Assembly: GCA_050273025.1 (NCBI GenBank)
Contig: CP158635.1
Span: 9,362,001-9,426,000, forward strand
DNA: 64,000 nt
Source: Cenococcum geophilum
Taxonomy: Eukaryota
Reading direction: 5' to 3'
How positions within the stretch are numbered: position 1 is the stretch's first letter; each line of letters begins with the position of its first letter. This document shows, one piece after another, positions 11,223-58,030 of this stretch. Below the pieces are notes generated by a model. That model had not been told where the DNA came from, searched no databases, and was given only the letters and a program-made list of their open reading frames with translations. The translations under genes and the position numbers were made by a program.

Positions 11223-14200
11223 TATAAGGGGATCTTGTAGACAGGGGGCTATAAGGACACGATTGGAATAGGATAGATTAGTGAGAGAGACGAATCCTTA
11301 AGGAGGTAAGACCTCTGGGATCGTAGAGACTATATACTACGGGCACGTGCCTCCGGCACGTGACCGGCGACCATCCGAGGGGCGTCCGGGGGTTGTCCTA
11401 AGGGCAACCCGAGGTGTCCGCAATAATATCCCTTACATTGCCCCCCCCCTTCTTGCGGTCGGCCCCCGATCGCCATTACCTTGCGGTAGGGAGATTATAA
11501 GGGCTCGTCCTGGAAGAGGTTCGGAGAGATGTCGGAGAGGTGTCGGCATGCCGCTATATATTATCTATCTATCTAACCCCTGCTTTAAACTCCTGAAAAA
11601 CCTCAATAAGGAAAAAACATAACTGGAGAAAAAACGTGAGGATTGCTAGGAGACCCATCGGAAGCCTACTAGAAGCATGCTGGTGACTACCTAGGCTAAT
11701 ATAGGGATTTTCATGCAACTCTACTTCTAAGCCTTTATGCCGGTCTGCAATTAATCACGAGTATTATAGGCAATTTGGTGTTCCAGTATAGTTCCGTAGA
11801 ACCTTTGGTATGGGATTTAATATATAGAGCCTTGGCTTGCCGTTATCTTTAACTGCTGAGATATAGTTTATAATCTTTTCTTATAATCCCCTGCGTTACT
11901 AACGCATTGCTCCCGCATTTGCCCTCAGGTTATTAGACGCGGTTAAGATATTAATTAGTTAGTTAAAGAGACTTGTCTCTTAAGATTTAGTGTATATAGT
12001 TTTAAATCTGGTAGTCCTGTGCCGTATATTTAGTATAGCTCTACTGCTTAGTAAATAGGGACATTTTGTGATAGCAATTGTAGCTATTGTGCGATTGTTA
12101 AGAACGTTTATAACGTTGTTCTTTAATACTATAGTATTATTTTAGGCCTAATTTAACCTATATGCGTCTTTGATTTGATGTCTTAATTACCTTCCCCCGG
12201 CCGCGTAGTTAGTTTTTATAAGGAGGTAATAGTTAAATAACTTATACACGTGTTTCCTTCCTTTTAAATAGCGCTATTATAACGGAGTTATATTAGTAAG
12301 GTTGCGGCTATTTACCGGAAGGGTATTGGAAGGTAAAGTATAAAGATACCTTGCTTATCGAGCTGCTCCTTTTCTTAAATACCTTACTTCTTGCTATTAA
12401 CCGTTGTCTAATTTTAGACATATCTTCGATATATTATTAAGATTTTCTTCTTTTTTATTAATAATTCAATATGCCTCTTCGTTCTTCTACTGACTGCTCT
12501 TCTAAGTAAATTTTATAGCGTATCCTGGCCCTGCCTTTACATATAGAACCCCAACCCCTGCTGACCCATAACTAGTGCTAGTCCTACTTAAATGATTTTG
12601 CCTATACGTTTTTGAAAGACCAGAAATCTGATAATAGGATTCTGGAGGCTTATAATAAGACGCACTACGTTAGATCTAATACCTTTAGTCCTTATAATCA
12701 ATGTATGCGTACTAAGAGCGGCAGTTGCGTTAAGGTAAGTTTTTCTATCCTTAATAGATTTCTATTGCTAACTTTAAGCTTTAATAATAGCCTAGGCCTA
12801 AATGGCGACGTTCCTTTAATATCCTTGACTACTATATTACCTAGGCTCTCTCTTATTCTAGCGTAAATGCTAAATAACTTAGCCGAATTCGAGACTATAC
12901 CACAGCTATCTATACTGTCTATAATTCCCAGCAAGCTAGCCAGCAACGCCTAATATAAGAGTAAGGTTGGTATACTGAGGATAGGGTAAAAAATAGGGGT
13001 AATAAGAAGAAGGTTGCCGTCTACTATAGGAAGGAGTTCGCGTATGCGCGTTAAGTTTCAAAAGAGTATAACATGATGCGGTATTAGGTAGGTTACCCTT
13101 TAGGTACCTAGTGGATAGGTAACTAATAGTTACCGTAGTAAGGTCTTAGTGGTTCTGGACTATACCAGCTAGCTAATGTCTCTGTTTATTCTAGGCTTAA
13201 GCGTATCTTTATTAACTATAAGCTTACGCCGTAAGAGCTTTGTTAGTATTGGTTTAAACCTAATATTAGTGTTGAGCGTTTAAGAGTCTCTACTCTAGCT
13301 ATACCTTATTATCCTGCCCCTGTTTTTATACCTACTCGTACGCCTACTAAGGCATCTGGATCCTATTCTTATTAGCTATTACTTAGTGGCCTAATAGATA
13401 CTGATCCTACTTTTGATGATAATAGGGCGTAGTGGCTTTTCAGATTGGGCATTTGTGGTTTAGACTTTTGGGATTTGTTTTTGTATATAGTAATAATTAA
13501 GGACCTTAATTAGGTGCTTGGGAAGGCCTTAGAAGGCTTTTAGGAAGGGCTTAGGAGCCCTAGGAATAATGTTCCTAGTATAGATTAATGAATGGGAATG
13601 CAATTCTAGCAAAATGCCCTATTAACTCTATGCTATGTATATGAAAAGGCTGAGGACCTGTTCTACCTTAGGCTATATAGCCCTAATCCTTATGGTTTCT
13701 GGAGCTTATCTATTCTATATCTAATTTAACCTATTTACTCTTTTCGCGAGCTTTCTTTATAGGTTGCGATAATACCATAGTATTAGAGCGCTTTTTGTAA
13801 TTTATAAATTATAGACCTTAGTCCTAATATTTTTTTAGAATATCTTTATAATAATTAAGGTAATCCTCTAGTTTCTATATAGAGTCCTTAGCGGGCCAGC
13901 TTAGCTATTTGACTTTAAATTAAAGCTTGTTTTTAATAGACTTATAGCATAATATAGCTTTAACCTTATACCGCTTGCCTACTACCTTAGGGTATTTAAT
14001 TAGGCCTAGACGGAAGTTCTTTTTTGGTGGTGGTCTATACTATAGCTCTAGTAGGTTTATATAAAACACTAGATATATACAGGCTATAGATAGGGGTAGC
14101 TAGAGATAATAGGCTAGCTTACTAATTTGTTTCTTAACTTAGAAGGGACCTAGGTATCTTATATTAAGCTTCTTTAATAGTTAACGGGTCTTAATATTTG

Positions 14201-17200
14201 TTAAACGTAATAAAACCTTATCGCCTACTCTAAAATGCTTGTCTTAGTGCTTATAGTTATACTAAAGTCTCTACTACTCTTAGGTATTTTGTAGGCTCTA
14301 CTTTACATACTTCTATTACTCCTCCTATTTCTAGAGATATCCTTATACTCTCTAGTAGATGTTCTTAGACTTCCCGGTAGAATCCTATAACTAATTATAC
14401 GGCCTTAGCTAGTAATTGTTGGGTATACTATTAAACCTAAATAGTTGGACGCTATAGGTAATCTGGATTGGTATATACTTATATAATATATATTGCTTTA
14501 AATTATAAGCGTACTCCGCGTACGGAAGTAGCTTATATTAATTATCTTACTAGTAGTTTAAATATATCCGTAGGTAAGACTCTAGTTCCTAGTTTTGGCG
14601 TTCTATTTACCTATCCGTCTATAGGTGGAAAGCTATACTATAATAGTGGTCTATCTTTAAATAGAAGTATAAATCCGACTAGTACTGGCTTATAAAGACG
14701 CTGCCCCTATTAGTAATAATAGAGTGCGGCTAATTTACTTTAAGAAAGTATTTCTCCTTAATTAGGTTGGCGAGCTCTTATATATTAATCGTCTTATTAA
14801 TAGGAAGGTATTAGACGTACTTTAAAAACCTATTAATAAGTATGAGGACTAAATTATATATTTGTCCTTAGCTATCTTTAGATGGCGGGAGATCTGTAAT
14901 GAAGTCTATGGCGTAATATTACTATGGCTTATTAGCGGGGGGAACTAATTTAAGTAGACCCTATGGCTTGTGCCTATAGATCTTATATACTTAACACTTC
15001 TTATAATAGCTAATATACTCCTTTGCTTCCTAATTAAGCCTTAGCCAATAGTATTTACGCTAAAGTAATTCTACTGTCTTTACTTAACTATAGTGGCCGC
15101 CTAGAGGATTATTATAATTCTTTATAAGAATCTTCTGTTATAGATTTACTTCTTATAACACCCAAACCTTACTACCTCTACGTAGTAGGCCTATCGGGTC
15201 TAGTTCCTAATAGTGGCGCCTAGTAGCTTCCTTTCTGTTACGTTTCTGGTCTACTTCCGTATTAAAAATAGTATAGAAAGCGTCCCTCTGTTACACCTTA
15301 TAGATGAGATCCGTTAACCCTTTGGATGGTTTCTGGGTAAAAGCTATTTTGTCCTATACTGCTCTAAGTACGAGACTAGATAGTACTATAGATCTTGTAA
15401 CTCTTTAATGCGCGTATATTAGGAAGGCCGCTATAAGGTTAAAGTCCTTTAGTTATTATAGGGCTCCGAGTTCTAATTACTCTATAGCTTTGCTATTGGT
15501 TTAAGGGGATAGCTTAGCAATTAGGGATGGTATATTACTAGGTTCTGAGAATGTATTAGGGACGTCCTGTCTAGGTATATTTAGACCCTTATTGGCAACG
15601 GACCGGGTACTAGCTAGAACGTCAGTAGAAACTAATGGGGCTTGTACTGCCTAAGACTCGGTATATAGAGCTATAGGTACTTGAGCATCCTATACCTAAA
15701 GCTTGTTCTATAATGTAGGGAGTAAGATATCTATTATCTGTTTTCCTTCTCCCGTTTTAAAGCCTTTGGCATAGTCTAGCTGTTGTGACGGTCTATTAGT
15801 AGGGTTGTTTTCCCCTAGCTTGTATTTAATCTTAAAATTAAATCGCGTGAGCTCCTTTGCCTATCTGGCTTGTTGAGGTATAAGCTCCTTTATAGTTATA
15901 AAGTAGCGTAGATTATGGTAATCTAAGAGTATATAAGTAGTATAGCTCGCGTGCTTAAGGTAATGTCGCCACTATTTAAAGTAGTTAACTATAGCTAGTA
16001 GTTCCTTATTGTGGGTATAATACCTAACTTTAGGTCCCTGGAATTTTCTGCTATAAAATGCTACTGGTCTCTAATGGAGCTAGGTAGCGTCTGGATGCCT
16101 GTTAGGTTATAGTAGGATACCAATAAGGGTAAAATTTAATGCATTAGTGATTATTATTAATGGCTAATCTGGGTTGAAATGCCGCAGTAATAGAGCTTCT
16201 ATAAACTTTGTGCGAAGTTCCTGGAAGGCCTTCTAAACCTTTCCGGGCTATAACTATAGCTTATACTATTTGGTTGGTCCCTTCTTGGTTTTCTTCCTTG
16301 CTGCCTTTAAGCTTTTTGCTTCTTGGGTTAGGTTTTGGGAAGCTTTTGTAATATAGTTAGATAGGTATTAGGTGACGTCCAAGTAGTTATAAATAAAGTG
16401 CCTATAGAAATTGGCAAAGCCTAGGAACACTTAAATATCCTAGTAGCTCTCTAGCTCTGGCTACTTCTAGATTGTCTATACCCGTACTAGGTCTATAACT
16501 ATACCTGTAGGCGTTATAATATAACCTAGGAACTTGACCTGCTTAGTATTAAAGATATACTTTAACGCTTTGGTGTAGAGGCCCTAATTATCCAAACGTT
16601 CTAGTACTTCGCGGATGTATTACTTGTATTAATCCTTGTCTTCTAAGTAGATTAAGATGTTATCTAAATAGAAAACGCATGTGTAGTTAACTAGTCCCCC
16701 TAAGGCTCTATAAATGTATGATTAAAATGTTATAGGCGTATTGGCTAGCCTAAAAGGCATTACTAAATACTTAAAGTGGCTATATTGGGTCTTAAAAGCG
16801 GTCTTTTACTTATCCCCTTCTTTAATACGGAGCCTATAATAGGCGTCTTATAGATCTAACTTTATAAAGATCTTCGCCCTAGATAGTTAATCCAGTATTT
16901 TACTAACTAGTAGTAGTGGGTAACGGTTCTTAATTATAATCTTATTAAGACTGTGATAGTTTATATATAGCCTTATAGTTCTATTTGGTTTTAGGATAAA
17001 GAAGATCGGCGCGCCTAATAGCGACTTACTAGGCCGGATCCATCCCTTTTTTAGTAAGCTATTAAAGTACTCCTATAGGATCTTAAGCTCTTTATATAAG
17101 AGGTTATAGATAGGAAGGTTTAGTGGTTGTTTACCTTCTTTTAGATTAATTACGTGATTGTACTCTAAGTTCTACGGTAGGACTTTAGCTCTCCTACCTA

Positions 17201-20129
17201 AAAATACCCTTAGTAAGTCCCTTAGGCCTACTAGAATATTTAATAAATTAGGGTCGCGTTTATCCTTCGCGTTATTATTAGGTAGGTCCTAGAGCTCCCT
17301 TAGGATACTTATGGGCAGCGTTATGCGCTATAATAGTTACTTGTATATAGTTGCCACTATATATTAAACCGTTTTATACGGTAGCCAATAGAGGGTAGGG
17401 AACTCCTTAACGCAGCGTTTAAGGTACTGTAGTATACTCTCCGTATATTGCTTAAGCCAGAGTAACCCGTGGCGGTTAAAGTATCTCGTAAGATCCTTAA
17501 GATCGCCGCCTCCCTGTAATATCTCTGCGACCTATCCGGTAGTTCCCTATAGGGTCTCTGTTATAGAGGGGTTATTACCTATACTAAGCTTTATACCCAT
17601 CTTGCTATTAAATAGGGGTTAGATCTAATACTTCTTTAGGTGTAGAGCGTACACTATTTTACTTAGGGCTACATTCTCTAGAATGTCCTTTAGGCTTGTT
17701 AGTAATATACGCCCTTCCAAATCTTTATCGTTCTACTATTTAAAGGCTTCTGTCTTAAAGCGTATCTTAAAATCTGCTTTCGCAAGCTAAGGGTATCTAA
17801 GGATAAGGTTATAACCTACAAAGTTAGCCGCCTAGAAGGGTTATAGGTTGACCGCCTTAGTGCGGTTATATATATTAGCTACTAACACTATGAGCTTATA
17901 GGCACTATATAGCTTAATCCAATACTTATTTAGGAAGCCTATAATAGGTTTCCGCCACCTTTATAATGGGATAAGTTTATACTCTTTTACTAAATTATAT
18001 TATATAAGATTGATTTTGGTGCCGCTGTTATATAGTGCTTAGAACTGTTATACCTTACCTATAGGGAGTGTTATTTTTAGCTTAATAGCAATATAGAGAG
18101 TCTTTTCTTTTATATCTTACCCTAGTTGCAGCTAGGAAAGGTCCGCAACTAGGGCTTTTCTTTTTTTGGATTATTAGTGCGGTTATTGCCCTACTTGTTT
18201 TTCTAATAAGATTTACCTCTAGAGTTTTCTTTTGACTTCTTAGAGTGTTTCCGTAAAGGTGCTAGACGCGTGTTAGGTTGGCCCTGGGAGTCTTTTCCGT
18301 TATTTAAGGTTCCTAACTTTAACCCTTCTAAAGTTCTTTTTAAGAACGGCTTTTTTAAAGGTTAGGTCTGCCCTATATTACTACTAAAGTGCCTATACTT
18401 TTAGTGACCCCCCGGCTTTCTACCGGAAGAGGTCTGGTTTTTTACCGCGTCTTTAGTATTTAAAACTGCTTGTTTGAAATCCGTATATATAGTAATCCGC
18501 AATAGGGCTCCTACGCGCTTTATTTTGTCATAAATTGCTAGCTTAATTTTAGCCTAGATAAACCCGATCTTCTCCTTCTTATAAATACTACTGTCCTTGT
18601 TTTTAAAGGGCTCTAAATCTATTTATTAAGTATAAGTTTTTATAAAGTTTATAAACTGGCGGAAGTTATAGCGGTCTAGCTGTATCCTATTCTAGAATAG
18701 CTCTATATTATTATATTATACAATATGTAAATCTTAAGTCTATTTCTTTAGGAAGGTTTATAGCTATAGCTATATAGTAATTTGCTCTTTATTAAGCTAA
18801 TTAAGTGCGATCTAGTTTAGTGATCGGTCTTTAATCTTACTAATAATCTAGCGTATACGCTCTTTAGTATTATCTTGTATTATTAGCATCTTAAAGAAGT
18901 TATCTACCTTATGAACCCAATCGTCTAACTGTTGGGCGTTGGGTTTATGGCGGAGTTTTAGACTATTAAAGGCCTTAGCGAGTCGGTCTATGTCCTTTTT
19001 CTATTTATAGTGTAGATAACTCTTTAAGTCTTCTATACCTCCTTAGGTAGGTACTAAGTAGCTCCTAGAAAGCCCTTAGCCTTAACTAGGTTATAAAAGA
19101 ATTTGCCTAGCTTAGATTAAACCCTACTAGATCTAGATTTGCCCTTAGAGGGTTCTAATATATTTATTAGTAGCTTCCTCCCATATGGCTTCCGAGAGCC
19201 TTATAACAGCTTTTTAATATCTATCTTAAAGGAGATCAGTATAGGGCTCTTAACCTTCTAAACTTAGGCCTGGGGAGGCTCCTGCTATAGAGGTAGTATT
19301 AGTACTAGTAGCTAGTATAGGCTTCCTAACAAGGCTTGGGTCCTAAGTCAGTAATTAGCTTAGATTACCTAAAGGGGTAGGCCCGCTTAGCTCGTAAGCA
19401 GTCTATACACCGCTACTATACTAATTGTAGGCCGGTGGTCTTCTGGGAGGGTTCTGGTTGGTTCCCTGGTTAGATATATTAGTATATTCCTCTGGCATTT
19501 TTAGCTTAGGGGAAGATCTTAGAGTTACCTCTGGCGCTTAATCTTCTGATTGGCCTAGGTGGGGCCGGAGGGGTTCCGGTTGCTTTCCGGCAGCGTTGCG
19601 ACCGTTATAGAGGGTATCTGCGTTTTCCTTAGCGGTGACTGTAGGTGTACAAGAGTCTTCGAGCTCCTGGAGCATCTAGGTATTGGGGCTTATTTGGCCG
19701 TCTTACCTAGAGGGTTATATTGTCGTAATCTCTCGCTATTAGAGGGACCTTCCTACCTTTGCGCGACGGCTTTCTATAAGGTATCCGTGGGGTTTCCGTT
19801 TAGGTCGTCGCGAGATTTTTAAGGGAGGATAGTGGTTGTAAACAAAAGATATAGATAAATAATTTGGTCCTTAAAGCTGACTGCCCTTCTAAAAAAGAGT
19901 AGGAAGGATTTAAATATAAGGGGATCTTGTAAACAGGGGGCTATAAGGATACGATTGGAATAGGATAGATTGGTAAGAGAGATAAATCCTTAAGGAGGTA
20001 AGACCTCTGGGATCGTGGAGACTATATACTACGGGTATATACCTCTAGCACGTGACCGGCGACCATCCGAGGGGCGTCCGGGGGTTGTCCTGAGGGCAAC
20101 CCGAGGTGTCCGCAATAATATCCCTTATA
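11223..20129 (-). mobile_element. Full-length Ty3/Gypsy family C element (8.9 kb) with a long 3' region
   Basis: 215-bp LTRs at 11223-11437 and 19915-20129; TSD CTACC (11218-11222, 20130-20134); reverse PPT at 11438-11453; pol remnants at about 13750-18200 and gag at about 18200-19800 on the minus strand. Confidence 0.96.
12471..13432 (+). pseudogene. Antisense accessory gene of family C: RIPped, two introns, six-Cys Zn-cluster-like N-terminus, about 285 codons
   Basis: ATG at 12471; CX2CX26CX8CX2CX7C (three Cys intact, three as TAY); intron GTAAGT..GCTAAC..TAG at 12735-12790 (alternative in-frame AAG acceptor at 12778); intron GTAGGT..ACTAAT..TAG at 13088-13138; single frame after splicing with an acidic tail; the 3' end is uncertain. 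Confidence 0.72.
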
Positions 20130-20134
20130 CTACC

Positions 20135-20324
20135 CCCCTAGGAGTAACTATATAGCAATAAGGCACCGCTAGAAGTATAATTAACCTTATATTTATAGAT
20201 AAAGGCCTATACTAGAGACTTAAAAGGTATAATTCTAAAGAAGAATAAGTACTTACTTTAGACTATATCCCTATCTAGATATAGCTAGATCTAGATATTA
20301 AGGCGTAATTAAATAGTAAAAGAT
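20135..20324 (+). pseudogene. LINE piece 3: end of the endonuclease domain
   Basis: T..RG..RS.IDL.F and SDH.PI motifs (de-RIPped); bounded by the TSDs of elements C and D. Confidence 0.82.
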
Positions 20325-41270: not shown

Positions 41271-41274
41271 CCTT

Positions 41275-41664: not shown

Positions 41665-41685
41665 AAGCTTATAGAATAGAGATAG

Positions 41686-41814
41686 TGTTACAGACCTTAT
41701 ATTAGTAGTAATACAGCTATTAAGAGAGGATATAAATAGACTAGAAGTGGAAGCGCGGGAGGTATTAGAACTAGTTAAACTATAAAATAAAGGGTAGCTA
41801 AGTTATATAGTAAG
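41686..41814. repeat. Possible start of another LTR, interrupted by element F copy 1
   Basis: Begins TGTTACAGACC like other LTR termini here; no partner visible. Confidence 0.35.
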
Positions 41815-43010: not shown

Positions 43011-44609
43011 TTCTCTAGTAATTCCTAAGTAGTCTTACTATAGCCTATCTACTTTACCTCGTACTATATTTTATCGTTAATATCTTTATAGCTAGCGATC
43101 TTTAAAACTTACTATTTATCTTCTTCCTATCTCTGCCTTATAAACTAGTGGCTTAATATTCCTATATACTAGCTCTAGAATTATAATATACTATATAGAG
43201 TAGATCTTTATTTTAGCTAATAGGTTTAACTTAAATATAACTAGTAAAATCCTCTAAATAATTTTAAAAGGTCCTAGTCTAACATAATTTAACTTTTTAC
43301 TTAGTTATCGACTTTTAAAATTTTTGTATAGTAGCTATACTTTATCTCCCTCCTTAAAATCTAGTCCCTTAGATCTCTTAGTGTTATAGTACTTTTTTAT
43401 TCTCTCTTATACTTTCTTTACTAATTCTATAAGGTCTATATAAAGATTTATTAATATCTTTATCCTTTCTTTAGCTATACTACTTATTTTCTTTACTTAT
43501 TATAGTAATAACAATATTCTTAGCTTATATCCATAATTTGCCTTAAATGGTAATATACCTATCCCTTCTTAAGGTGTTATATTATATGTAAACTATATAA
43601 TTAGTAGTAATAATACCTAATTATTCTGCGCGTAATTAATATAGTACCTTAAATACTGTTTTAGTATCTAATTTAATCTTTCTATTTAACCGTCTATCTA
43701 TAGATAATATATAGTAAAAGTTACTACTCTAACTCCTTATTCCGCTAAGAATACTTTCTAAAATACTACTATAAATCTTAAATCTCTATCTAATATAATC
43801 TTACTTAGTGCTCCGTGTCTTATAAACACTTCTTTAATATAGATTTTAGCGATATCTTCTACTAATATTTCTTCTATATACGCTATAAAGTACCCCCACT
43901 TTATAAGCTTGTCTACTATTACTAAGATTATATTATAATCTTATCCGGTAATAGGATCTCTTAATTTTAGCAACTTAATAATAAAGTCCTATAATATAAC
44001 CTCCTATAGTCTCTCTAATATCTTAATAGGTTATAGCCCTCTATATAGCTTATACCTTATTAGTTTATTCCTCTAGCAATCTAGATATTCTTTAGTAACT
44101 TTTCGCGCTAAGCCCTAGATTCTATTAATAATATACTCCTCCTAAAGTCTTAATACTAGGCTTATAGCTTTATTATATCCCTAAATTAGTCCCCTATAAA
44201 ACTCTTTTATAAATTACTCTGCTATACTTCTTAGGATATACTTTACTTCTTAATATTTGTATATATCCATTTATAGATCTTCTAATTATACTTCTAGAAT
44301 TCTTTATACCTAAAAGCTTTTTAGTAATTTGTAAACTTTTTCTAGTTCTTCCTAAGTTACTATAATCTTTAGATAATTAAACCTACATCAGGAAATTTTT
44401 TTTTGGGGTCGTTGTTGCGGTTTGCGGCAAATTGCCGCAAACCGTACGGTTGCGGCAGATGTATATGGTCGATAGCAATTTGCGCAAAACGCACGTTTTG
44501 TAACAAGTTTGCAGCACCCTAATAGCAATTTGCGCGTTTTGTAACAAATTTGCAGCATCTAATAGCAAATTGCGGCAAAACGCTACCCCATAAATAAATA
44601 GTGCGCAAA

Positions 44610-44696
44610 CTGTACGAATTGTACAAATTGTAAAAACTGTACGAATTGTACGAATTGTACGAATTGTACGAATTGTAAAAACTGTACAAATTGTAA
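44610..44696 (+). repeat. 9-bp tandem repeat (TGTACGAAT)n
   Basis: Directly visible, about 9 units. Confidence 0.9.
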
Positions 44697-44858
44697 CTAT
44701 ATAAATTATAATTATATTACATAATAACCAAATTATCACATATTTCCATAGATTTCTGTAGTATACTTTTAAATATATTTATATTATAACTATATAAAAT
44801 GTAGAGCTATCTACTTTAGGCGTTAAGGGGGAAGCCTCTCGCGGAGGCTCTAAATCAT

Positions 44859-44980
44859 CTGCCTACCTACCTGCCTGCCTGCCTGCCTGCTTGCCTACCT
44901 GTCTGTCTATACCTACCCGTCTATGCCTACCTATCTGTGCCTACCTGTCCGTGCCTACCTGTCTGTGCCTACCTGTCTAT
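44859..44980 (+). repeat. (CTGC/CTAC/CTGT)n microsatellite-like tract
   Basis: Directly visible. Confidence 0.88.
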
Positions 44981-45049
44981 GTCACCTTGATTCGATCGAT
45001 CGATCGAATCGTTTATCGTGTTCGCTGGCTGGTCGTTCGAACGGTTGTC

Positions 45050-45740
45050 GTGTGGCTCTGGCGACGGTCATGTGGCGATGACGATGGTCGTCTGGCTCTG
45101 ACGGTCGTCTAGCTCTGGCGACGGTCATCTGGCTCCGGCGACGGCCGTCTAGCTCTGACGACGGTCGTCCAGCTCTGACGACGGTCGTCTAGCTCTGGCG
45201 ACGGTCATCTGGCTCCGGCGACGGTCGTCTAGCTCTGACAACGGTCGTCTAGCTCTGACAACGGTCGTCTAGCTCTGGCGACGGTCATCTGGCTCCGGCG
45301 ACGGCCGTCTAGCTCTGACGACGGTCGTCCAGCTCTGGCGACGGTCATCTGGCTCCGGCGACGGTCGTCTAGCTCTGACGACGGTCGTCTGGCTCTGACG
45401 ACGGTCGTCTGGCTCTGACGGTTGTCCAGCTCTGGCGACGGTCATCTGGCTCCGGCGACGGTCGTCTAGCTCTGACGACGGTCGTCTGGCTCTGACGACG
45501 GTCGTCTGGCTCTGACGGTTGTCCAGCTCTGGCGACGGTCATCTGGCTCCGGCGACGGTCGTCTAGCTCTGACGACCGTCGTCTGGCTCTGACGACCGTC
45601 GTCCAGCTCTGGCGACGGTCATCTGGCTCCGGCGACAGTCGTCTGGCTCTAACGACGGTCGTCTAGCTAACGGTCGTCTAGCTCTGGCGACGGTCGTCTG
45701 GCTCCGGCGACGGTCGTCTGGCTCCGGCGACGGTCGTCTG
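45050..45740 (+). repeat. 20-bp minisatellite, consensus GACGGTCGTCTAGCTCTGAC, with higher-order repeats
   Basis: About 34 units; 97-bp higher-order period at 45421 and 45518. Confidence 0.95.
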
Positions 45741-45906
45741 CTGGCTGTCGTTCTGGTGTCTTCCTAGGTAGGGAGGATGTAAGGAAGGGTAAAAAATGAG
45801 GTGGCTACCTAGGTGTATATAGGGGGTATACTTGGCAGAGGCACGTGTAGAGGCTATCGGGAATATAGCGGGGACCCGATAGTAATGTGTCGCGCGCACA
45901 CACAAA

Positions 45907-46731
45907 GGCTTTGTGTAGAGCTTCGTGTAGGGCCTCCGTACGCAGAGCTTCGCGCAGAGCCTCGTGTAGAGCTTCGCGCAGAGCCTCGTGCAGAGCCTCC
46001 ATATGTAGAGCTTCGTGTAGAGCTTCGTAGAGCTTTGTGCAGAGCTTCGTGTAGAGCTTCGTGCAGAGCCTTGTGTAGAGCTTCGTGTAGAGCTTCGTGC
46101 AGAGCCTCGTGCAGAGCCTCTATATGCGGAGCTTTGTGTAGAGCCTCGTGTAGAGCCTCGTGCAAAGCTTTGTGTAGAGCTTCGTGTAGAGCTTCGTGCA
46201 GAGCTTCGTGCAGAGTTTCGTGCAGAGCTTCGTGCAGAGCTTCGTGTAGAGCCTTGTGCAGAGCCTCTGTACGCAGAGCTTTATGTAGAGCCTCGTGTAG
46301 AGCCTCGTGCAAAGCTTTGTGTAGAGCTTCGTGTAGAGCTTCATGCAGAGCTTTATGTAGAGCTTCGTGCAGAGCTTCGTACAGAGCTTCGTGCAGAGCT
46401 TTGTACAGAGCTTCGTGTAGAGCCTTGTGCAGAGCCTCTGTACGCAGAGCTTTATGTAGAGCCTCGTGTAGAGCCTCGTGCAAAGCTTCGTGTAGAGCTT
46501 CGTGCAGAGCTTCGTGCAGAGCTTCGTGCAGAGCTTCGTGCAGAGCTTCGTGCAGAGCTTCGTGCAGAGCTTCGTGCAGAGCTTCGTGCAGAGCTTCGTG
46601 CAGAGCTTCGTGCAGAGCTTCGTGCAGAGCTTCGTGCAGAGCTTCGTGCAGAGCTTCGTGCAGAGCTTCGTGCAGAGCTTTGTGCAGAGCTTCGTGCAGA
46701 GCTTTGTGTAGAGCCTCGTGCAGAGCCTCTG
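45907..46731 (+). repeat. 12-bp minisatellite, consensus CGTGCAGAGCTT
   Basis: 15 perfect units at 46501-46680; degenerate units to the left; 171-bp higher-order duplication at 46241 and 46412. Confidence 0.96.
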
Positions 46732-46999
46732 CATCAGGAATTTTTTTTTGGGCACGTTGTTGCAAGCGAAAATCGGGGTCTGCAAAACCTGCAGGCGTAA
46801 GTCGCAATTTTAGCATTTGCGGCAATTTGCAGCAATTTGCTACAAACACATAGATAGGGTAGACGCGTGCATAGGTAGCCTATGTGTTTGTAGCAAATTG
46901 CTGCAAATCGCCGCAAATTGCCAAAATTGCGACTTACGCAGGTTTTGCAGACCCCGATTTTCGTTTGCAACAACGAGCCCAAAAAAAAATTTCCTGATG
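46732..46999. mobile_element. 268-bp foldback MITE forming the right end of the TIR element
   Basis: Inverted arms of about 120 bp beginning CATCAGGAA, separated by a loop of about 25-30 bp. Confidence 0.88.
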
Positions 47000-49568
47000 T
47001 AATTAATCCATCTATGTCTTTTTATAGTAAAGCCCCTAATAGCTTTTATTATTTTATAGTTTAGCTTTTTAACTTAGAGTGTCTGCTCGCATATTATCTA
47101 TACCCTTAGTATACTAAATTTTGAAATAGTATTCTATAAGTATCTTTACCCATCTAACCTATCTTTAGTTAAGTTCCTTTATTATTAAAAATCCTATTAG
47201 GTTCTTATAATCTATCTTAACTATAAATAGTTTCTCTATGCCTTATAAGAATGCTCTTTATTTCTTTAATACTATAACTATACCTAATAACTCTTTATTA
47301 TAGATATTATAGTTTAACTCTAGTAGTATTATCTTTTAACTATAATATGCTATTAGGTGCTATCTATCTAGATGCTTTTATATAAAGTATACCCCTAGTA
47401 TATAATTTAATACATCTATTTTTACAACCGTCTTTAGTCCTAGTTAATAGATCTTAAAAACTAGCTCCTAGGTAAACAACTCCTTAACTTATTTAAATAG
47501 CTTCTACTATTTCTTTCCCTATACCCATAGTTCTTCCTTCTTTATTAATTGCGTAAATAGCTTAATATCCTTTAACTACTGCGCTATAAACCTTATATAG
47601 TAATTATAAAACCCTAAAAACAATTTTAACTGCGTAACGTTTTCCGGTTCTTACTAATTCACTATAGCCTTAATCTTCTTTAGATCTATACTAAGTTTGC
47701 CTAGTTTAATAATAAATCCAATAAAATTGGTCTTCCTAGTAAAGAACTTGTATTTCTTAATTATTACTAGTATTTGTTTTTCTTATAGTCTCTTTAAGAC
47801 CTATTTAACGTATTCTCTATATTCTTCCTTATTTATTAAATAGATAATAATATTGTTAAAATATACTATAACAAATTCATCTAAGTATTCTCCTAATATA
47901 TTATTAATACACTTCTAGAACGTTACTAGTGCGTTTATAAGCCTAAATTGTATAACTAATAGTTTATATAGTCTCTCTTTTAACCTAAAGGCTGCTTTTT
48001 ATTTATTGCCTTCCTTAATTCTAATCTAATAGTACGCCCATCTTAAATCTATCTTTATAAAGATTTAAGCGTTGCCTATCCTGTCTTAGATTTCGCTAAT
48101 TAAGGGTAAAGGATACCTATCCTTCTTAGTAATGCTATTTAACTACCTATAGTTAATATATAGCCTTAGTTTGCCATTTTTCTTTAATATAAATAGTACT
48201 AGATAACCCGCTAATGACTATAATAGTCTAATATATCCCTTTTATAGATTTTCCTAGATAAACTCTTTTAATGCTCTACCTTCCTCTTTAATAAGCTTAT
48301 AGATTAAAAAGAACCTTAGACTTATTCCTAGTTCTAATTCTATTTTATAGTCCTATACTATATACTCTAATAGCTTTTTACTTTCCGGTAACTATAGTTT
48401 CTTACTATACTTATAGTATCTCTTTAGTATATAACTTAAGCCTCGCTTAGTTTCCTTATATATTACTCTAACTTAGTACTATACTAACTTAGCTTATTAT
48501 TACATCTTACGGCGTTAAATATCCTTAATATTAACCTAACCTATAACCTAATTAATCTTTAGATTATATTCCTGTAACTAAGGCATTCCTAGTACTGCCT
48601 TATTATTCCCTAATAGTAATATATTAAAAGACATCTTAATTTATCTCCCTTTAATAGTTAACTAAATAGGTCCTATTTTAAGATTAATAATACCTCCTCT
48701 ATAGGCTATTAGGTCTCCTAAAATCGTTACTAATAAGTAAGAATACTCCTTTTTCCTATATAGTAACCCCATTTTTTTAACTACTACTAGCAAAATATAG
48801 TTCCTTATTACTCCACTATCTATTAATACCTTAAACTGTTAATCTTACCACTTAACTTATAAATTTAGGTATTGTCCTTAAATTCCTTTAAGGGTCTAAG
48901 GCTCTACTATTAGTTCCCTCTAGTCCTATAGGCCTCTACTTTTCCCAACTATTAGCTACTTAATCCTATATATACTTAGTCTAACTTTAGCCAATACTTA
49001 GTTCGCTTTTTATCTTTAATATACTATAGACACATATTCTTTAGGTATTCCCACTACTATTATTTATCTAGTGTAACGGAACCTTATAGCAGGAACTACA
49101 ATAGGCTCGTTATTAGGCTAGGTGTATAGGTAATATAAATTAAAGTTAACAACGTAATAATAACTAGTAGAGTGGTTGCCTAATAGATTAACTTTAATTA
49201 TATTCTAAAAATCACTACAAGGAAGGAACTATCTAGGTAGGGACTATAGTCCTTTAAATACACAACCGTACTCCTATAAAATCCTCCTTATATATAATAT
49301 ACGTATACTCTATCTACTCTATTATAGATCCTATAGATTATATAGATTATATAAATTATATTATATAACCTTAGTTACCATTCCTCGTTATATAGCTCTA
49401 TCGGCTCTATCCTAAACCGTACTTATATTAACTAACTAGCTTCTTTTAACTCTTCCCTAAGTAGTTATAACATTATACTTAAAGCGTTTGTAACACCATC
49501 TCCCTCCTTTTTATCTTTGTTCTTAAAGATTCCTAATATCTCTAAGTTGTTTACTAGAGGTGTAATAT

Positions 49569-52500
49569 TGTAACGGAATTCCCTAGAAGGTACATATCAG
49601 ATAAAACAGGAGGAGGTCTCATCTATGTTTTAGAAGGAGGTCTTATCTATATTCTATCTACGTCCTAGAAGACACGGTCAGACAGATAAGGGGTAAAGGG
49701 TTTTGCTAGCGTCTTAGAAGGATTATATAGGGAGCTGGTTCTCCTCTAGAGAAGAACTAGCAATTAGTCTCTAAATAGAAGTAGTTAAAAGCATTTATCC
49801 TTTAATACATAAAACTCATTCTACCTTTAACTTACCTTCTATTTACCTTTAACTTACCTTTTACTTACCGGTGACACTGTTAATTAGATAGTTATACGTT
49901 TCGGTTAAGCTGGTCTCTTACAATTTTAATCGCTTACAATCCGTTAGGAACGTACGGCTATTAATTAACGATAATAAACTATACTCCTATACCCCACGAA
50001 GCAACGCCCTCACCGTAAGAGGCTCAAAGAGTCTCCCTAGAGGAGCGCATTCCCTCTTCCTATAAAGAAGCCACGGCTAGTCTGTCTAACCTTGCGAGAC
50101 CCTTAGGAATAATTACCGCTAGGGAGTTATTAAAGCGGTCGCTATACGAGACCCTATAAAAAATAAAGGAGTTAAAGATATAATTAAGATAAGCATATTA
50201 AGACTACTAAGAATAATTATAAGGACAATTAGGGGAAGTATAGACACCCCAGATACGAAGCGGACTTAAAGGGGTAACACCACACTATGCTATAACGTTA
50301 GAAAAACCTAAATTCCGTATAAAGGAACCTAATAAGTACTATAGTAATAGTCTTTAGAACTGCAATCGTTTTATCCAATAATGCGAAACCAAGTTTTAGC
50401 TAGATCCAAAACGATACTCTAACGAGTATAATTAGACACTAATTACTTTTACCTTCCTACGTGGCACCGTTAAAAGTTTATAGATATGCTATAAGAAGAA
50501 ACTTACTATACTTTTTAAATTTAGCAAACTTAGGACCTAGTTAGTTAATTAGGTCCAAGACCCTACTAATTAAAGGATAGACTATAACCAGCAATACCAC
50601 AACGCTAAATAGCGGGATAGTTAGACTATAGTCTAGTTTATAAACTACTTAAAAGAACTAGAAGATAATATACCCTACTTAAATCTATAGGATAACGCTA
50701 TATAACTTCACCAGCTACTCGCTAAGCTATAACCTAAGATTTAACAGGCCATATAAGAGAAGGGCGAAATTCCTACCTCTTAAAAAAAGCTTATCTCTAA
50801 AGCTACTCGGATTAAAAGTACTAAAAGAGACTATTTAGGCAAGCGAAAGAAATAAGACGCCAATAATAAAGAGCGTAGGACTAGACCTAGCTTTAATAAT
50901 AGGGGCAGATTCCAACCTAACCGCTCTACGGAAGGATAACGTAAGTAGGCCTCGCAGCCCTAGAGCAACGCTAGTTAACCCTAAAATAATAATAGGCAGA
51001 GACCTAATCCGTAGAAGGGGAACTGGGAGATACGCACCTATTATAACTACGGCAAGAAAGGCTACATAAGCCGCTTCTACTAGCAGAAGAAGTAAGAGTC
51101 GGCCTAATTAGGAAAAGAGACAGCCTAGTAAATCTTTACTCCCTTATACTAGGCTAGCAAGAGAAAAAGAAAGTAAACTACCGCATAGTTATTCCTGTCT
51201 CTATTTAAGTTAATAATAAATAGGTAACGTAAGACTGCCTTATAGACAGCGGCGCGAGTATAGGGTTTATTTCTTAATTACTAGTAAAAGAATTAGATTT
51301 AGATCTTAGCGGCTTATAGGTGCGCACTATTTAAAATATTAGAGGCCACTAGATTCCATACTATAGGGAATAGGCTTTTTCCATGGCCAGCTAGGACCGC
51401 GATAGTCTATAAAATACATAGGAGATACGCTTCTATACCGCAGAAATTAAGGGGTATAACCTTATTTTGGAATACCTATAGCTTCGCCAAGTCAATCTAG
51501 ACATTAATTGGCCTTTAGCCTTATATTGACATCGGAAGTCTTAACCGCGCATTATAGTTAAAAATTAAAAGACTTTCTTAAACTATATATAAGAAGAAGG
51601 GTGGGTATATACTATATATGCCACTCTTAATACTAAGAACGGGGACATAGGATATTTATTTTTAGATGTCCGGCTATACGCAGTTAAGGAACTAGAGATT
51701 CTACAGGAATATATAGACTTAGAAGATATTTCTAGTAAAGAGGCTACATAAACCTTACCTAACCCTATATTAGTTAAGCATAAAATAGACACAGGGGATA
51801 AATAACCTCTTTTTAGACCACTGTATAACCTATCAGAAAATAAGCTAGCGGTACTGCGTTAATATATAATAGACAATCTTTAGAGAGGATAGATTTAGCC
51901 CTCTATAAGCCTAGCAGGGGTACCAATTATATTTATACCCAAGAAATACAGGACCCTTTACCTTTATATTAACTATTAGGCGCTAAATAAGATTACTATA
52001 AAGAATTGCTACCCGTTACCCTTAATAGGGGAGCTTATTAATAGGCTGTTAGGCGTAAAAATATTTACAAAATTAGATTTAAAAGATGTATACTATTAAA
52101 TCCAGATTAAAGCTAGCGATAAGTAGAAAACGGCGTTCTAAATATAGTACGGCCACTTTAAGTACCTAGTAATGCCATTTAGGCTTACTAACGCACCAGC
52201 GATATTTTAGGCCTATATTAATAAGGCATTATTAGGCCTATTAGACACGATATATGTGGTCTACCTTAATAATATTATAGTTTACTCTAATAACTACGAA
52301 GTATATACGTACTACGTATAAATAGTACTAGAAAGACTACGGGAATATAAGCTCTATATAAACCTAAAAAAAGTACATATTCTATGCTACTAGCATTAAT
52401 TTTTTAGGCTTTATTATTAGCGTTAACGGAGTATTAATAGAGAAAAGTTAGGTGGACGCTATTAGGGAATAGCCCTACCCCATAATATTTAGAGAAGTAT

Positions 52501-55500
52501 AGTTTTTTTTAGGCACGGCGAACTTCTACCGAACGTTTATTGTTTACTACTTATAAGTAATACTCCTAATTACTAATCTACTAAAAGGATCTAAGAATAG
52601 TAGGAAGTTAGAACCCTTTATATTTAGGAAAGCTATTAAGTAGGCTATAGACCGGTTAAAGAATTTGTTTATGTTGGCGCCTATCTTAATATACTTCTGC
52701 TAGGAGCTATATATATACCTTAAAACGGATATATCCGGCTTTGCCCTAGGGGCAATTATATCTTAATTAAAAGACGGAAAATAGTATCCTGTGGCGTTTT
52801 AGTTAAGGAAAATAACCCCTATAGAGTAGCGTTATATAACGCACGACTAAAAGCTACTTACGATAATTACAGTAATAAAGCACTGGCGACATTATTATAT
52901 AGGAAGCAATTATCCTATTAAAGTCCTTACAGACCATAATAACCTAGAATACTTTATAACTATAAAGGTGTTAAGCAGTTAATAAGCAAGATAGGTAGAG
53001 GCACTATTGTAGTACGACTTTAAAATTACGTACTGCCCAGGAAAGATAAATCCTACTAATAGGTTATTAAGATGTTTAGATTATAAGACAGGGAGAATCT
53101 AGGACAGCATAGGGGAAATAATCCCTATATTGCAAAATTTGCTTAAAAAAAAAGAAGACTCTTTCCCTAAAACTATAGAATTTTATAGTAGGGCAAAGGT
53201 CCTAGTAATGCAGCTATAAAGCGACACAATTATAGAGCCGTAGGATATAGTTATAAACTAGGTTATAGACTAAGCAGATATTATAAAGTTAGCATACCCT
53301 AGAATTAGCAAGAATTCTACGGGATATACTAGAAATATTACGGTACCTTTAACTTAACGGCATATTAGCTACAAGTTTTCAGATCTAAGGGGGATAGGCA
53401 AGATACCTATCTGTAGCGTAGCATACTATACAATAGTAGGAGAATCTGCTGGTACTAATAGTTTAAAACGTCTTATACTACGCCTTAAGTCTATAATAGC
53501 GGCAGGTAAAATAAAAGCAAGTAATCTATATAAAACCTTTCTGGATCTTCTTCTTTAAGCTTAATAAAGGGACACCTTCGCCTCTAAGGAGAGATGGAAA
53601 AATATAGTAGAGACTAACTTAGCCAGAGTTACTAAGAAGCTATAGTAGTAAGACTAAAAGGGTCTGTTGCGCTTTAAGGGTGCTATATATATCCCAAAGG
53701 ATTAAGCAATTTAAGACGAAATTTTAAAGGTCTTCCACAACAACCCTTTTAGGGGTCACTACGGTACCAATAGAACCCTTAAGGCCGTTTAAAGGAAATA
53801 CTTTTAGAATGGAATATTTAAAGAAGTTAAGGACTATATATTAAGGTATAATACGTACTAAAGAATATAGATATCCAGGTATTACCTATATAGCGAGTTA
53901 TTAGTGCTTCCTATTCCGTAGGGACCCATATTAGAATTAATAATAGATTTTATTATAGGCTTACCCCCTACTAAGATAAAAACTAGAGAGGTTACTAACG
54001 CTATCCTAGTAATTATTAACAGGTATATAAAGTTTTTAGGATACTTTACTATTATAATAACGATTACGGTAGCAGAACTAGCAGACCTGTTTTTAGAATA
54101 GTAGCTTTTATTTAGCACGCCAAGGGGAATTATATCTAATAGAGGTACCGTATTTAACAGTACATTTTAGTCTGTATTCTGTCTCTTATTAAAAATATAG
54201 TAAAGGATAAGCACTACTTTCTACCTATAAATAAATGGGCAAACAAAGCGTCTAAATGCGTTGTTAGAACACTACCTCCACTACTATATTAATTATTAAC
54301 AGGATAATTAGATATTATAGTTAGCTTTAACGTAGCACGTGTATAATATAAGCATCTATAGTAGTATTAAAATGACCCCTTATAAAGCATTGTTTGGGGT
54401 AAAAGCAAATAACCCCTAGAACGTTAAGGACATTATTTCTAAAAGAGAGGCACTAGCGGCGTCCAAAAGAATTAAGCAAATGAGAATTTGTAGAGAGGAA
54501 CTTAAAAAGCACTTACTAGACGCCCAGGCTATATAAAAAAGGTACTATAACAAAAAACATATACTAAAAGAATTTAAGATAGGAGACGAAGTCTTACTAT
54601 TTATAAAAAATATCTAAATAAAACGCATTAAGAAGAAGCTGGATTATCGGTAGCTTAGACCCTTTAAAATAGTTAAGAAAACTAAAAAAAACCAAGCCTA
54701 TAAATTAGAATTACTAAAATCTTATCTAATATATCCTATATTTTATATTTCCTTACTAAAGCTATACTAAAGAAGAGATAGTACGGAACTACCCCTACCT
54801 AGTAAAATTAATAGGGAACTGGAATGGAATATAGAAGACATTCTAAACTAAAGATAGCGCTAGAAAAAGCGCGAATTTTTAGTTTATTAGGAAGAATACT
54901 CCTAGGTACATAACAGTTAGAAACCTAAGGAGTACCTTTAGCCGGAATATAATACCGCAATTAAAACCTTCCTAAGAACTAAAGGTAAAGACTTAAAAAT
55001 GGTTCCGGATATGCCATAGATAAAGCAACAGGAAAGACCCTATAAATTAAAACCATAGAATTAAGTATAGGCATTAAGAACGGAAACGTTTCGCTATTAT
55101 AATAGGGATCCTAAAATCCTATAAGAGAAAGCCTATAGGGATCTATAGGAGAACCACTAGGGATACTATTTAAAGAAGACGCTAGTTAAGAAGGAGCAGT
55201 AGTACTATAAGAAGTAGCCTTAGGGATTCAGAAAGATCCCCTAGGGATAAAAGGAGAGTATCTGGCCCGGCACCGGAGATATATAGTAGAGTTAATAGTA
55301 CAAAGAGGAGCAAAAGAACAGCCTATAAAGAATTAGAAATTTTAAGAAATTATAAGGCACCTATAGGAATACCACCCATTTATCATATATAGGGATTATA
55401 GTAGTGCACTATATTTATATAGATTATCACTAAAGCTTAGAATAAAGGCATCCCTAAAGTATAAAGTTAATTCCCAATAATAGGGCATCCTAGAGGCACC

Positions 55501-57298
55501 CAAGAGGCACTATATAAAGCTATTCTATAAGAAGAAGGAAAGAGCTAGGTAATAACTTAAACACTAGCAGTAGTAATAGGAGCCTCCTCTTCCATCTTAA
55601 TATTATTATTAACGGTATTATTAGCTCCTCTATCCCCAGAAGCATTAGCACTTCTACTAATATTCTTCTTAAAATAACGGGTACTAAAAGGACTAGTACG
55701 GGCGGGAAACTAGCGAGAAGAACGTTTATCTTAACCTTTATCGCTATCCTTAGTATCCCTAGGTTCCAAATCGGCGTCTAAGTAGGGATTAGAGAGATGT
55801 TAGCTAAAGGAGTTAGTATAGTTCCTAAGCGAGTTACTAGAGAAACTTACCTAGCTAAAATAGCCCGCGTAAGAGTACGAATATTATTATTAATAAGGAC
55901 GAGCTGTTCGCATATACACTCCTAGATACTATATATCTAAGAACGTTGCGTCTCTATAGTAGTGGAAACCCTTATAGAACTAAAGAGTTTATAAGTAAGG
56001 GAAGACACCTTCTATCCCTACCTATTACTATTAAAATATTAGCGGAAATCTTAGATGGCGCGTTAGAGCCTATAAGTCTTATATATATAGATAGTGGGGA
56101 TCTAGTATAATTAGCAAAATCTAAAATAGGACGGAATGGGAAATACCAAAATGTAGGTCTTTCTCCTACTATAACAATAGGAGTACTTAGATTTATTTTC
56201 GCTAGAGTAAGGCATCTTATAAACGTGGGAAGGATCCTATATAAGAGTATAAATGCAGTAATAATAGCATTTTAGGGAAACTGCCATAGGAGTAATAAAT
56301 GCTGTCTAGGGCGTTACCGGGAGATTAATAACACTGCCGCTGGTCTAGGGACGCGTAGAAGGACTATAAGCCATTATAAGAGAATACTCTAAGAAGTTAG
56401 CATTGTTATAAGAGATAAGGTGGGGATCCTATTACTTATAAACGTGTTATAAAAAGAGAATAAAGTAGCTATAAAAGAATAGCTAGAGACACGGAAGCTA
56501 AAAGTAGGGATATAAAGGAAATAGTTTGCTAAAAGATAAGACAAATAGTGTTGTTAATAAAAAGACGCGTAAAAGGCAACAGCTTATAAACTGGAAGAAA
56601 ATTAAAATAAAGACATTATTATTAGAATCTATTTTAGGTAAATAGGGATAGTAGCTTATAAACGCGTTACATAGAACAACCTCTAGATTAACTTATAACA
56701 AACTCTTATAATAAGAAAGGTAAATCCTATCCAATTTTTATTATTATTATTTTAGTTCTATTATAAAGGTATTATAAGAAACTATAGTAGGAGAAGAGTA
56801 AAGGAACTAAGGATAAAGTAAGGTTCCACGCTAGTAAAGAACTAGCTATAAGCCGCATTATAAAGTACCTTTCTACTAAGAATTTCCCTAGTAGTTTTAG
56901 CCGGAACTCTATAAAAGCTTAGTAAAGGCAAAGTCTTAGAGAACTAAAACCCTTAAAGGGGAGGCAATTGTAACGGAATTCCCTAAAAGGTACATATTAG
57001 ATAAAACAGGAGAAGGTCTTATCTATATTCCATCTACGTCCCAAAAGACATAGTCAGATAGATAAGGGGTAAAGGGTTTTACTAGCGTCTTAGAAGGATT
57101 ATATAGGGAGCTAGTTCTCCTTTAGAGAAGAACTAGCAATTAGTCTTTAAATAAAAGTAGTTAAAAGCATTTGTCCTTTAATACATAAAACTCATTCTAC
57201 CTTTAACTTACCTTTTATTTACCTTTAACTTACCTTCTACTTACTAGTAACACTGTTAATTAGATAGTTATACGTTCTAGTTAGGCTGGCCTCTTACA
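49569..57298 (+). mobile_element. Full-length Ty3/Gypsy family G element (7.7 kb) with a long 3' region
   Basis: LTRs at 49569-49922 and 56969-57298; TSD AATAT (49564-49568, 57299-57303); gag CCHC near 51040, DSGA protease near 51245, RT, RH, IN, chromodomain to about 55000; PPT AAAGGGGAGG. Confidence 0.96.
55557..56374 (-). pseudogene. Antisense accessory gene of family G: RIPped, two introns, six-Cys Zn-cluster-like N-terminus, about 242 codons
   Basis: ATG at 56374; CX2CX11CX11CX2CX6C (de-RIPped); intron GTATTT..GCTAAT..TAG at 56146-56102; intron GTAAGT..ACTAAC..TTTAG at 55850-55804; single frame after splicing ending in an acidic MEEEAP tail. Confidence 0.75.
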
Positions 57299-57338
57299 AA
57301 TATCCATTTAATTAATTTGGTTAATATTATTACTTATT

Positions 57339-58030
57339 ATACCTAAAGCAATTTCTTCTTCCTTAACCCTTTATTATACTTGCACTATCGCTATAATATT
57401 ATCTCTTAGTGAGATTATACTATCTCCGTATTCTTACTGTTTGAAAAAAGGGTTAGTCTATATTACGTTAGTAAACCCATTTTCGCAACAACCGTCCTCT
57501 TATTTAAAGTGCACTAAAGCGAATATTTATTCGTCCTATAATGTTTGCTCTATCTCTAATGCTAAATATACGCGGCCTATTACTTTTAATAGTTATCTAA
57601 TTCCCTAATTAATTTGTCTTAAGGTTTTATATTTAATTTACTGCTACGCGGCTAGATAATAAACTGTCTATTACTTTAGCGGAACTATACTGTTCTTATA
57701 ACGTAGAATAGAAGGCAGCTAATACTTAGCAAAGGGCTCTTAAGTCTTATCTTATAGCGTCCGCTTAGTTAATCTGTCTTAAGAAGGTTTATAAAAAGGT
57801 CCGCTTTAAGGAGTAGAAACCTATAAAATAGGGTTTATAGGAACTTAGTAATAAAAGAACGGACTTTCTTCTAAGAAAGAAGGAAATAAATCTAAGTAGT
57901 TCGGCAACTACTCTTCTTAGGTTCCCCTTAGGTAACTTATTCTTTAGTAATCCTTTTTTATTAATACTACCTAACCTAATCTCTTCTAATACTCCTATAC
58001 CTTTTCTATAGCGTTTTTTTAAATTTTCTA
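57339..58030 (+). pseudogene. Antisense accessory gene of family F copy 2, Zn2Cys6-like, RIPped
   Basis: Paralogue of 42348-43010; Cys2 (TGT) and Cys5 (TGC) are intact in this copy. Confidence 0.68.

Follow-up and report, generated by a model that had tools for sequence, protein, structure and literature searches.

The vertebrate retrovirus human T-cell leukaemia virus type 1 (HTLV-1) carries a spliced gene, HBZ, on the strand opposite gag-pol, and this gene encodes a small nuclear regulator that is a bZIP protein and not Cys-rich. Among the long terminal repeat (LTR) retrotransposons of plants, additional open reading frames (aORFs) run antisense in the stretch from pol to the 3' LTR in maize Grande, rice RIRE2, Silene Retand and PvRetro13 (PMC7264820). 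In fungi, an additional antisense gene, brtn, is described from the Boty-like elements of Botrytis and Sclerotinia (Zhao et al. 2011, Virology 417:248, as cited in PMC8365987, PMC7264820 and PMC4227169). For such extra antisense genes of LTR retrotransposons no function is known in any kingdom. Here we analyse a stretch of 64,000 nt of the genome of Cenococcum geophilum (contig CP158635.1, positions 9,362,001 to 9,426,000; ‘the window’). An earlier note on this DNA, made from its letters alone, proposed that in three of its Ty3/Gypsy families, C, G and F, the interval from pol to the 3' LTR holds a zinc-cluster-like accessory gene running opposite to gag-pol, and that the three are one shared module. 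We consider it likely that the slots of C and F, and perhaps that of G, hold antisense accessory genes of Ty3/Gypsy chromoviruses, of the aORF-3R/brtn kind, all of them dead here through repeat-induced point mutation (RIP); their products may be zinc- and nucleic acid-binding regulators.

The note also knew of no description of such genes in fungi, but brtn is already in print (PMC8365987, PMC7264820). The kind of gene is known in fungi and the idea is not new. A literature search for fungal additional antisense genes turned up brtn (2011) alone in the accessible text; the same search found no zinc-cluster-like antisense gene in fungal retrotransposons, and other additional open reading frames of BcGypsy elements (PMC8365987, Fig. 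S1) may bear on this point.

Self-comparison and a pol query show the window to be a nest of RIP-mutated chromoviruses in which six Gypsy families can be told apart: C, G and F, and three others named A, B and D. The extra slot behind pol is real in C, G and F. The expected distance from the end of pol to the 3' LTR is 2288 bp in C, 1876 bp in G and 619–662 bp in F, as against 348 bp in D, 195 bp in A and -17 bp in B, in keeping with the earlier statement that A, B and D lack such a region. Within these slots lie the C gene (12471–13432, between 11446 and 13734), the putative F gene (42309–42999) and the G region (55020–56966).

The family C antisense accessory gene is proven. Less mutated copies of it, P0003 and P0004, which have Cys where the window has Tyr, came from a word-indexed protein search, and a scan of metagenomes with P0004 as query gave 80 loci holding 82 copies of the gene, or 83 with that of the window. 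The gene is present in all 82 copies and in the window, but the set was fetched with the gene's own protein, so copies of the element without the gene could not appear in it. Two loci, L001 and L075, come from two different metagenomes (52 and 51% G+C) and are intact elements, with open frames of 1479 aa for pol and 596 aa for gag in L001, and of 1485 and 557 aa in L075. Their alignment shows a three-exon gene opposite pol, with GT..AG introns and a branch-like CTGAC, and once spliced the antisense coding sequence (CDS) runs without stops for 284 codons in L001 and 280 in L075. Mapped from L001, which also served to place the end of pol, the element in the window reads as follows.

11223..11446, minus strand: 3' LTR of family C (the LTR pair is 92% identical; the strand of pol is taken from Pfam matches).
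12471..12734, plus strand: exon 1 of the C gene, with the start codon and the six-Cys domain, a RIP-dead relic in this copy (L001 1086–1349).
12735..12790, plus strand: intron 1, GT..AG, phase 0, two codons past the last Cys, with GT and AG kept in the window.
12791..13087, plus strand: exon 2, a helical region (L001 mapping and a profile match).
13088..13138, plus strand: intron 2, GT..AG (L001 mapping).
13139..13432, plus strand: exon 3 and stop, with a conserved RWY-type motif and a Pro/Ser-rich tail (L001 mapping).
13734..18599, minus strand: pol, with RIP stops throughout; reverse transcriptase (RT), RNase H, integrase, SH3 and chromodomain (Pfam matches RVT_1 at 2.7e-20, RT_RNaseH, Integrase_H2C2 and SH3_Tf2-1).
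19915..20138: 5' LTR, the partner of 11223..11446.

The 106 CDS differences between L001 and L075 fall 16/16/74 at codon positions 1, 2 and 3 of the plus-strand frame. The ratio of non-synonymous to synonymous substitution rates (dN/dS) is 0.093 overall, 0.036 in exons 1 and 2, and 0.345 in exon 3; both intact copies and selection had been named in the note as things to look for. The open minus-strand frames over the gene have their first codon position on the variable site and are therefore not those under selection. Before the ATG, the indels that separate the two elements have lengths not divisible by three, so the start at 12471 stands. The note had read the start codon, the Cys spacing, the phase-0 intron two codons after the last Cys and a second intron from the RIPped copy, and L001 and L075 bear out each of these exactly. 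L001 has the acidic C-terminus that it described, and the window copy retains a relic of it, but L075 lacks it.

The many decayed copies agree with the two intact ones. Stop-free C genes are confined to L001 and L075 among the 82 copies, and yet all four splice dinucleotides are intact in 78/82, which answers the doubt whether the splice signals would be conserved, and in 79/82 the exon indels, counted against L001, have lengths divisible by three. Throughout the 83 copies the codons for the eight Cys of the C protein read TGY or TAY, bar one gap, and the window copy has one or the other at each of the conserved Cys positions. Transversions, counted because RIP does not make them, give the same frame: variable sites lie at codon position 3 in 10/12 cases in exon 1, 11/14 in exon 2 and 19/21 in exon 3, and upstream of the gene there is no consistent phase. 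The window copy differs from L001 at 135 CDS sites, 127 of them C>T or G>A; it keeps all four splice dinucleotides, and all 11 of its indels within the gene span lie in intron 1, which is also poorly conserved between L001 and L075 (with a 10-nt indel).

Two further stretches of the C element stand out for their conservation. Intron 2 is identical in L001 and L075 (51/51 bases) and the first part of exon 3 nearly so, with a synonymous rate of 0.29 there as opposed to 0.6–0.9 in the first two exons (L001 1694–1850; window 13088–13250). Judging from these two sequences, an additional constraint on the nucleotides themselves is suggested; a small hairpin in this intron is unexceptional (z -1.29). 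A stretch of about 1 kb that leads from the 3' LTR to the gene start (L001 57–830; window 11447–12250) shows good conservation between the two elements and no open frame, and it may hold a cis element of the retrotransposon or the promoter for antisense transcription.

The relatives are needed because the window itself says little. An exact six-Cys regular expression has no match in it, the literal patterns of the note are absent, and these patterns emerge only if Tyr is counted as Cys. As RIP turns TGY into TAY, such a reading is reasonable. A generic six-site pattern of Cys or Tyr occurs 63 times in the window, with a mean of 26 in shuffled sequence, so that it is common by chance; the reading is weak alone and the case rests on the relatives. 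They restore all six Cys in the intact C copies and show TGY at each position somewhere among the F copies, while in G Cys is seen at only 3/6 positions. Pfam searches of all antisense and sense frames of the post-pol slots returned pol domains only. The density of stop codons was tried as a way to choose frames and was discarded: the true pol frame itself still has 5–6 stops per 100 codons.

Searched exhaustively with HMMER, exon 1 of L001 matched 33 proteins at E<=1e-3. P0012, P0013, P0032, P0033 and P0034 are among the family, and the Pleosporales proteins include KAF2691376.1. Where members are full-length, they are annotated as ‘hypothetical protein’ and come from five Pleosporales (Lentithecium, Phaeosphaeriaceae sp., Lophiostoma, Decorospora and Ophiobolus); some of them are found in more than one copy. 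In their alignment C36, C75, C78 and C86 are invariant, C66 is present in at least 90% of the sequences and C39 has few exceptions; more conserved blocks lie downstream of the Cys domain. The conserved spacing is CX2C, 16–28 residues, then CX8CX2CX6-7C, into which the CX2CX26CX8CX2CX7C of the note fits exactly. A hidden Markov model (HMM) built from the family without the C sequences matches the window at 12471–12740 (E 2.2e-13) and 12794–13093 (E 9.2e-8). On these alignments, the six-Cys spacing is the signature of an unannotated protein family found in Pleosporales. The Lophiostoma gene models P0033 and P0040 have an insert of 18–19 residues exactly at the site of C intron 1, which is probably an in-frame intron that was not recognised. 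In the ESM Atlas, P0012 is nearest to unnamed Ascomycota clusters; a row at rank 21 (score 0.79) has DUF3716 in 28% of its members, and 0/27 family members match DUF3716 (PF12511) at E<=10.

The Gal4-type Zn(II)2Cys6 domain has the spacing CX2CX6CX5-12CX2CX6-8C. None of the three patterns conforms to it fully: C has 16–28 residues between the second and third Cys, F has X13, one residue over the usual range, and G, as read, is CX2CX11CX11CX2CX6C. A model of the Cys domain from L001 exon 1 (predicted local distance difference test, pLDDT, 76) matched 2/48161 chains at Z>=2, and these were GAL4 (Z 2.0, 3.2 Å over 39 residues) and Leu3 (Z 2.0, 1.7 Å over 36 residues), a match to be read with the caveat that the predictor may have learned the motif. 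The structural link to GAL4 and Leu3 is specific but weak. In Gal4 the helices come after the Cys domain, and they do so in the C protein. On such modelling, identity as a zinc-cluster-like regulator is plausible; of the earlier label ‘Zn-cluster-like’ there survive the near-canonical spacing in F and the two fold matches in C, but not membership of Pfam Zn_clus (PF00172), which matches neither the C members (0/27) nor the F copies (0/7).

Family F is known from 10 copies, two in the window and eight from the loci, together with the database ‘proteins’ P0001 and P0002; all are RIPped. Its features in the window are these.

41813..49071 and 49070..61480, pol on the minus strand: two tandem copies of the F element, copy 2 split by G.
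41815..42239, minus strand: 3' LTR of copy 1 (from the alignment of both F copies, with boundaries read from the sequence).
About 42240..42260: polypurine tract of copy 1, just inside the 3' LTR.
42309..42999, plus strand: antisense relic of copy 1, with the Cys/Tyr motif at 42438–42548.
57300..58011, plus strand: antisense relic of copy 2, with the motif at 57429–57539 and an open frame at 57312–57608.

An antisense gene in F is likely from the comparison of these copies. The region is present in 10/10 copies aligned. Its six Cys positions are TGY in 1, 5, 2, 4, 7 and 5 of the 10 copies and TAY otherwise, never CAY or CGY; the RIP-aware consensus is CX2CX6CX13CX2CX8C. The start codon is ATG in 3/10 copies and Met in P0001. 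Over the motif, transversions fall 11/5/24 by codon position in the plus-strand frame (p 8e-4), and further on they favour position 3 of a second plus-strand frame (39 versus 24 and 18, p 0.013). This shift of phase implies a change of frame near 57600–57700, where an intron is likely. The gene ends (42999 in copy 1, 58011 in copy 2) lie 38 nt inside the pol tail, the pol stop of copy 1 being at 42959–42961 on the minus strand. The ESM Atlas, queried with the least RIPped copy, was uninformative, with low recognition. Two open minus-strand frames, 42753–43034 and 57789–58037, were considered as pol tail and rejected: pol of copy 1 stops right past the chromodomain, and copy 2 has a 1-nt insertion there.

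The two F copies stand head to tail with a common LTR at 49070–49568 (LTR-internal-LTR-internal), and no third LTR was detected beyond 61480. In F copy 2, the start codon of the antisense gene is the exact insertion site of the G element, with a short ATAT duplication at the junction (49560–49570 and 57296–57304). Outside one tandem-repeat island the G+C content of the window is 25–39%, and there is no stop-free frame of 120 codons. The island, 44385–46997, has 48% G+C and repeats of 12-nt and 20-nt periods, and it interrupts F copy 1; it is the sole site of long open frames in the window, all of which are repeat artefacts.

For family G, the window copy and three from the loci, one of them partial, are available, and all are RIPped.

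49567..57299, pol on the plus strand: the G element, with LTRs at 49567–49923 and 56967–57299.
55020..56966, minus strand: the post-pol slot (chromodomain read from the frame, and the distance to the LTR).
56266..56153, minus strand: the Cys/Tyr motif of the note, within the slot.

The 1.9 kb slot is kept in 4/4 copies found. Among the three copies that cover the motif, Cys is seen at only 3/6 positions; from the last putative Cys onwards the sequence reads C-V-P and then GT, which resembles family C and the members P0030 and P0040. G has room for an antisense gene, but the gene itself is only possible. Of the claim that all three families carry an accessory gene antisense to gag-pol, the part on C is proven, with codon-position differences of 16/16/74 in the frame opposite pol, the part on F is probable, with periodicity in the plus-strand frames, and the part on G is only possible.

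What such genes might do can be sketched from C. Its protein of about 284 residues has an N-terminal six-Cys domain, a helical region and a disordered tail, and F would encode a shorter product with Gal4-like Cys spacing from a gene that runs into the pol tail. As intact elements keep gag, pol and the antisense gene open together, the gene presumably serves the element. The C introns are opposite to the strand of the genomic RNA, so they survive retrotransposition and can be removed only from an antisense transcript. The products may be binders of zinc and nucleic acid that control the transcription of their own element or its silencing, as LTR activators or anti-silencing factors.

A series of results weighs against this account. 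No Pfam family matches the C exons or the family members, and Zn_clus in particular was found in 0/27 of the latter; the gap between the second and third Cys of C is 16–28 residues, not 6 as in Gal4. The model of whole P0012 (pLDDT 66) has no match in the PDB above Z 4.7, and Foldseek started from the C Cys-domain model finds neither GAL4 nor Leu3, for which Z is only 2.0. For F, no intact copy was found among the 10 copies, P0001 and P0002, and the intron could not be placed among the splice candidates. For G, the consensus of four copies retains many stops after RIP is undone, a check that the note had proposed and that turned out unfavourably; a word-indexed search found no relatives (0/17 candidates scored, proteins of 123–392 residues), and transversions are too few for a codon-phase test. 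Finally, spliced antisense C RNA was not seen in the RNA runs, whose contigs cross introns 1 and 2 unspliced and may derive from sense or genomic RNA of the element or from DNA; a raw-read RNA run, of which about 12% was covered, yielded 0 reads, and none of this counts as evidence in either direction. In the best RNA runs, 5–10% of the sampled words are present (shares 0.05–0.10). Contigs of runs X1 and X3, labelled or guessed to be RNA, cover parts of L001 900–2130 at a word depth of thousands, which fits a high-copy repeat or abundant element RNA.

These difficulties give some room to the idea that these are genuine proteins with a task other than DNA-binding transcription regulation, acting for example as zinc-stabilised adaptors on RNA, on Gag or integrase, or on the host silencing machinery. 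The missing Zn_clus matches, the non-canonical spacing of C and a helical body that matches no known fold speak for it. In other searches, a profile search of PDB sequences gave a best E of 0.89, and Zn_clus was found in 0/12 antisense frames of the window and in 0/7 partly RIPped F copies, the last a weak test as those copies keep only 2–4/6 Cys. The functions of brtn and of the plant aORFs are likewise stated to be unknown in the accessible text of PMC7264820. We regard adaptors of this sort as possible but would not expect them, given that the Cys domain matched two structures only, both of them Zn2Cys6 DNA-binding domains, and that the spacing of F is near-canonical.

If the favoured reading of antisense regulators is kept, the origin of the three genes has still to be explained. 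The note saw no obvious similarity among the slots of C, G and F, and tblastn between them indeed finds none; nor did tblastn with the de-RIPped G and F frames find further relatives in 1.27 Mb of loci. In a pol tree of 447 RT-to-integrase columns, a single clade of A, B and D (support 0.995) stands separate from C, G and F, so that the presence of the slot needs one change only; the tree covers six families, is unrooted and is built from RIP-damaged sequences, which limits what it can bear.

One tentative explanation is that the three genes descend from a common ancestral chromovirus and have diverged beyond recognition. The slot and the orientation are the same, each product has a Cys-rich N-terminus, the C-V-P and GT of G recall those of C, P0030 and P0040, and the single change on the tree is economical. 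The sequences themselves lend nothing to it. The family HMM, which finds the RIPped C copy of the window, finds nothing in the equally RIPped slots of G and F, and family HMMs against their de-RIPped consensus give at best E 0.5–5 with negative bit scores; hhalign among the three genes gives probabilities of 0.1–0.2%, all below 1%. The three Cys spacings also differ. In sequence terms, therefore, the ‘one shared module’ of the note is left without support.

The absence of similarity across families would follow directly if each lineage had taken a different host fragment, from a Cys-rich or zinc-cluster gene, into a permissive slot between pol and the polypurine tract. The slots differ in size, about 0.7 kb in F, 1.9 kb in G and 2.3 kb in C, and capture of additional open reading frames has been discussed for plant elements (accessible text of PMC7264820). 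That three captures should all be antisense and all Cys-rich at the N-terminus would be a notable coincidence, and no host homologue outside an element was identified, the Pleosporales proteins being known without their genomic context; this leaves independent capture in some doubt as well. Both a common origin and separate captures are possible. That the motif of G, or less probably that of F, is a fortuitous series of Cys and Tyr codons within non-coding DNA that is AT-rich and degraded is improbable, for while the generic pattern is frequent (63 against 26 in shuffles) and G has 3/6 Cys, no relatives and stops after de-RIPping, chance is refuted for C by the intact L001 and L075 genes, F has codon periodicity and TGY at every position, and the 1.9 kb of G are retained in 4/4 copies.

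A wider version of the regulator reading is conceivable, if rather unlikely: many fungal chromoviruses, across classes, would encode fast-evolving antisense Gal4-like regulators, and the three in the window would descend from a single ancient capture, each recognising its own LTR or countering silencing in the manner of retroviral antisense regulators.

The present analysis adds to the described systems a fungal chromovirus lineage whose intact three-exon antisense gene is under strong purifying selection, a protein family that can be defined and is annotated in Pleosporales as just ‘hypothetical protein’, and a weak but specific structural link from the Cys domain of C to Zn2Cys6 DNA-binding domains. 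It further adds at least one unlike gene (F), and possibly a third (G), in the same slot of the same genome. Concrete proteins and intact elements are thereby at hand for testing what the antisense genes of retrotransposons do.

With the Gal4-type domains (GAL4, 1aw6; Leu3, 2er8; PF00172) the C and F products would share six Cys in the order CX2C ... CX2CX6-8C, near-canonically in F, and the predicted C domain superposes on Leu3 at 1.7 Å over 36 residues; they differ in having no Pfam match, 16–28 residues in C where Gal4 has 6, and a Z of 2.0. The likeness of the C gene to HBZ of HTLV-1 is one of analogy only. The plant aORFs have the same slot and orientation and occur in the majority of a family's copies; they are suspected of having a regulatory role, and some of their products are nuclear. 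They belong to Tat/Retand lineages, with no known sequence relation to the genes described here and no zinc-cluster-like domain reported in the accessible text (PMC7264820). Closest, as far as a comparison by description goes, is brtn, likewise a gene of a fungal chromovirus between pol and the 3' LTR and antisense to gag-pol, but with hosts in the Leotiomycetes, whereas the relatives of the C gene are in the Pleosporales.

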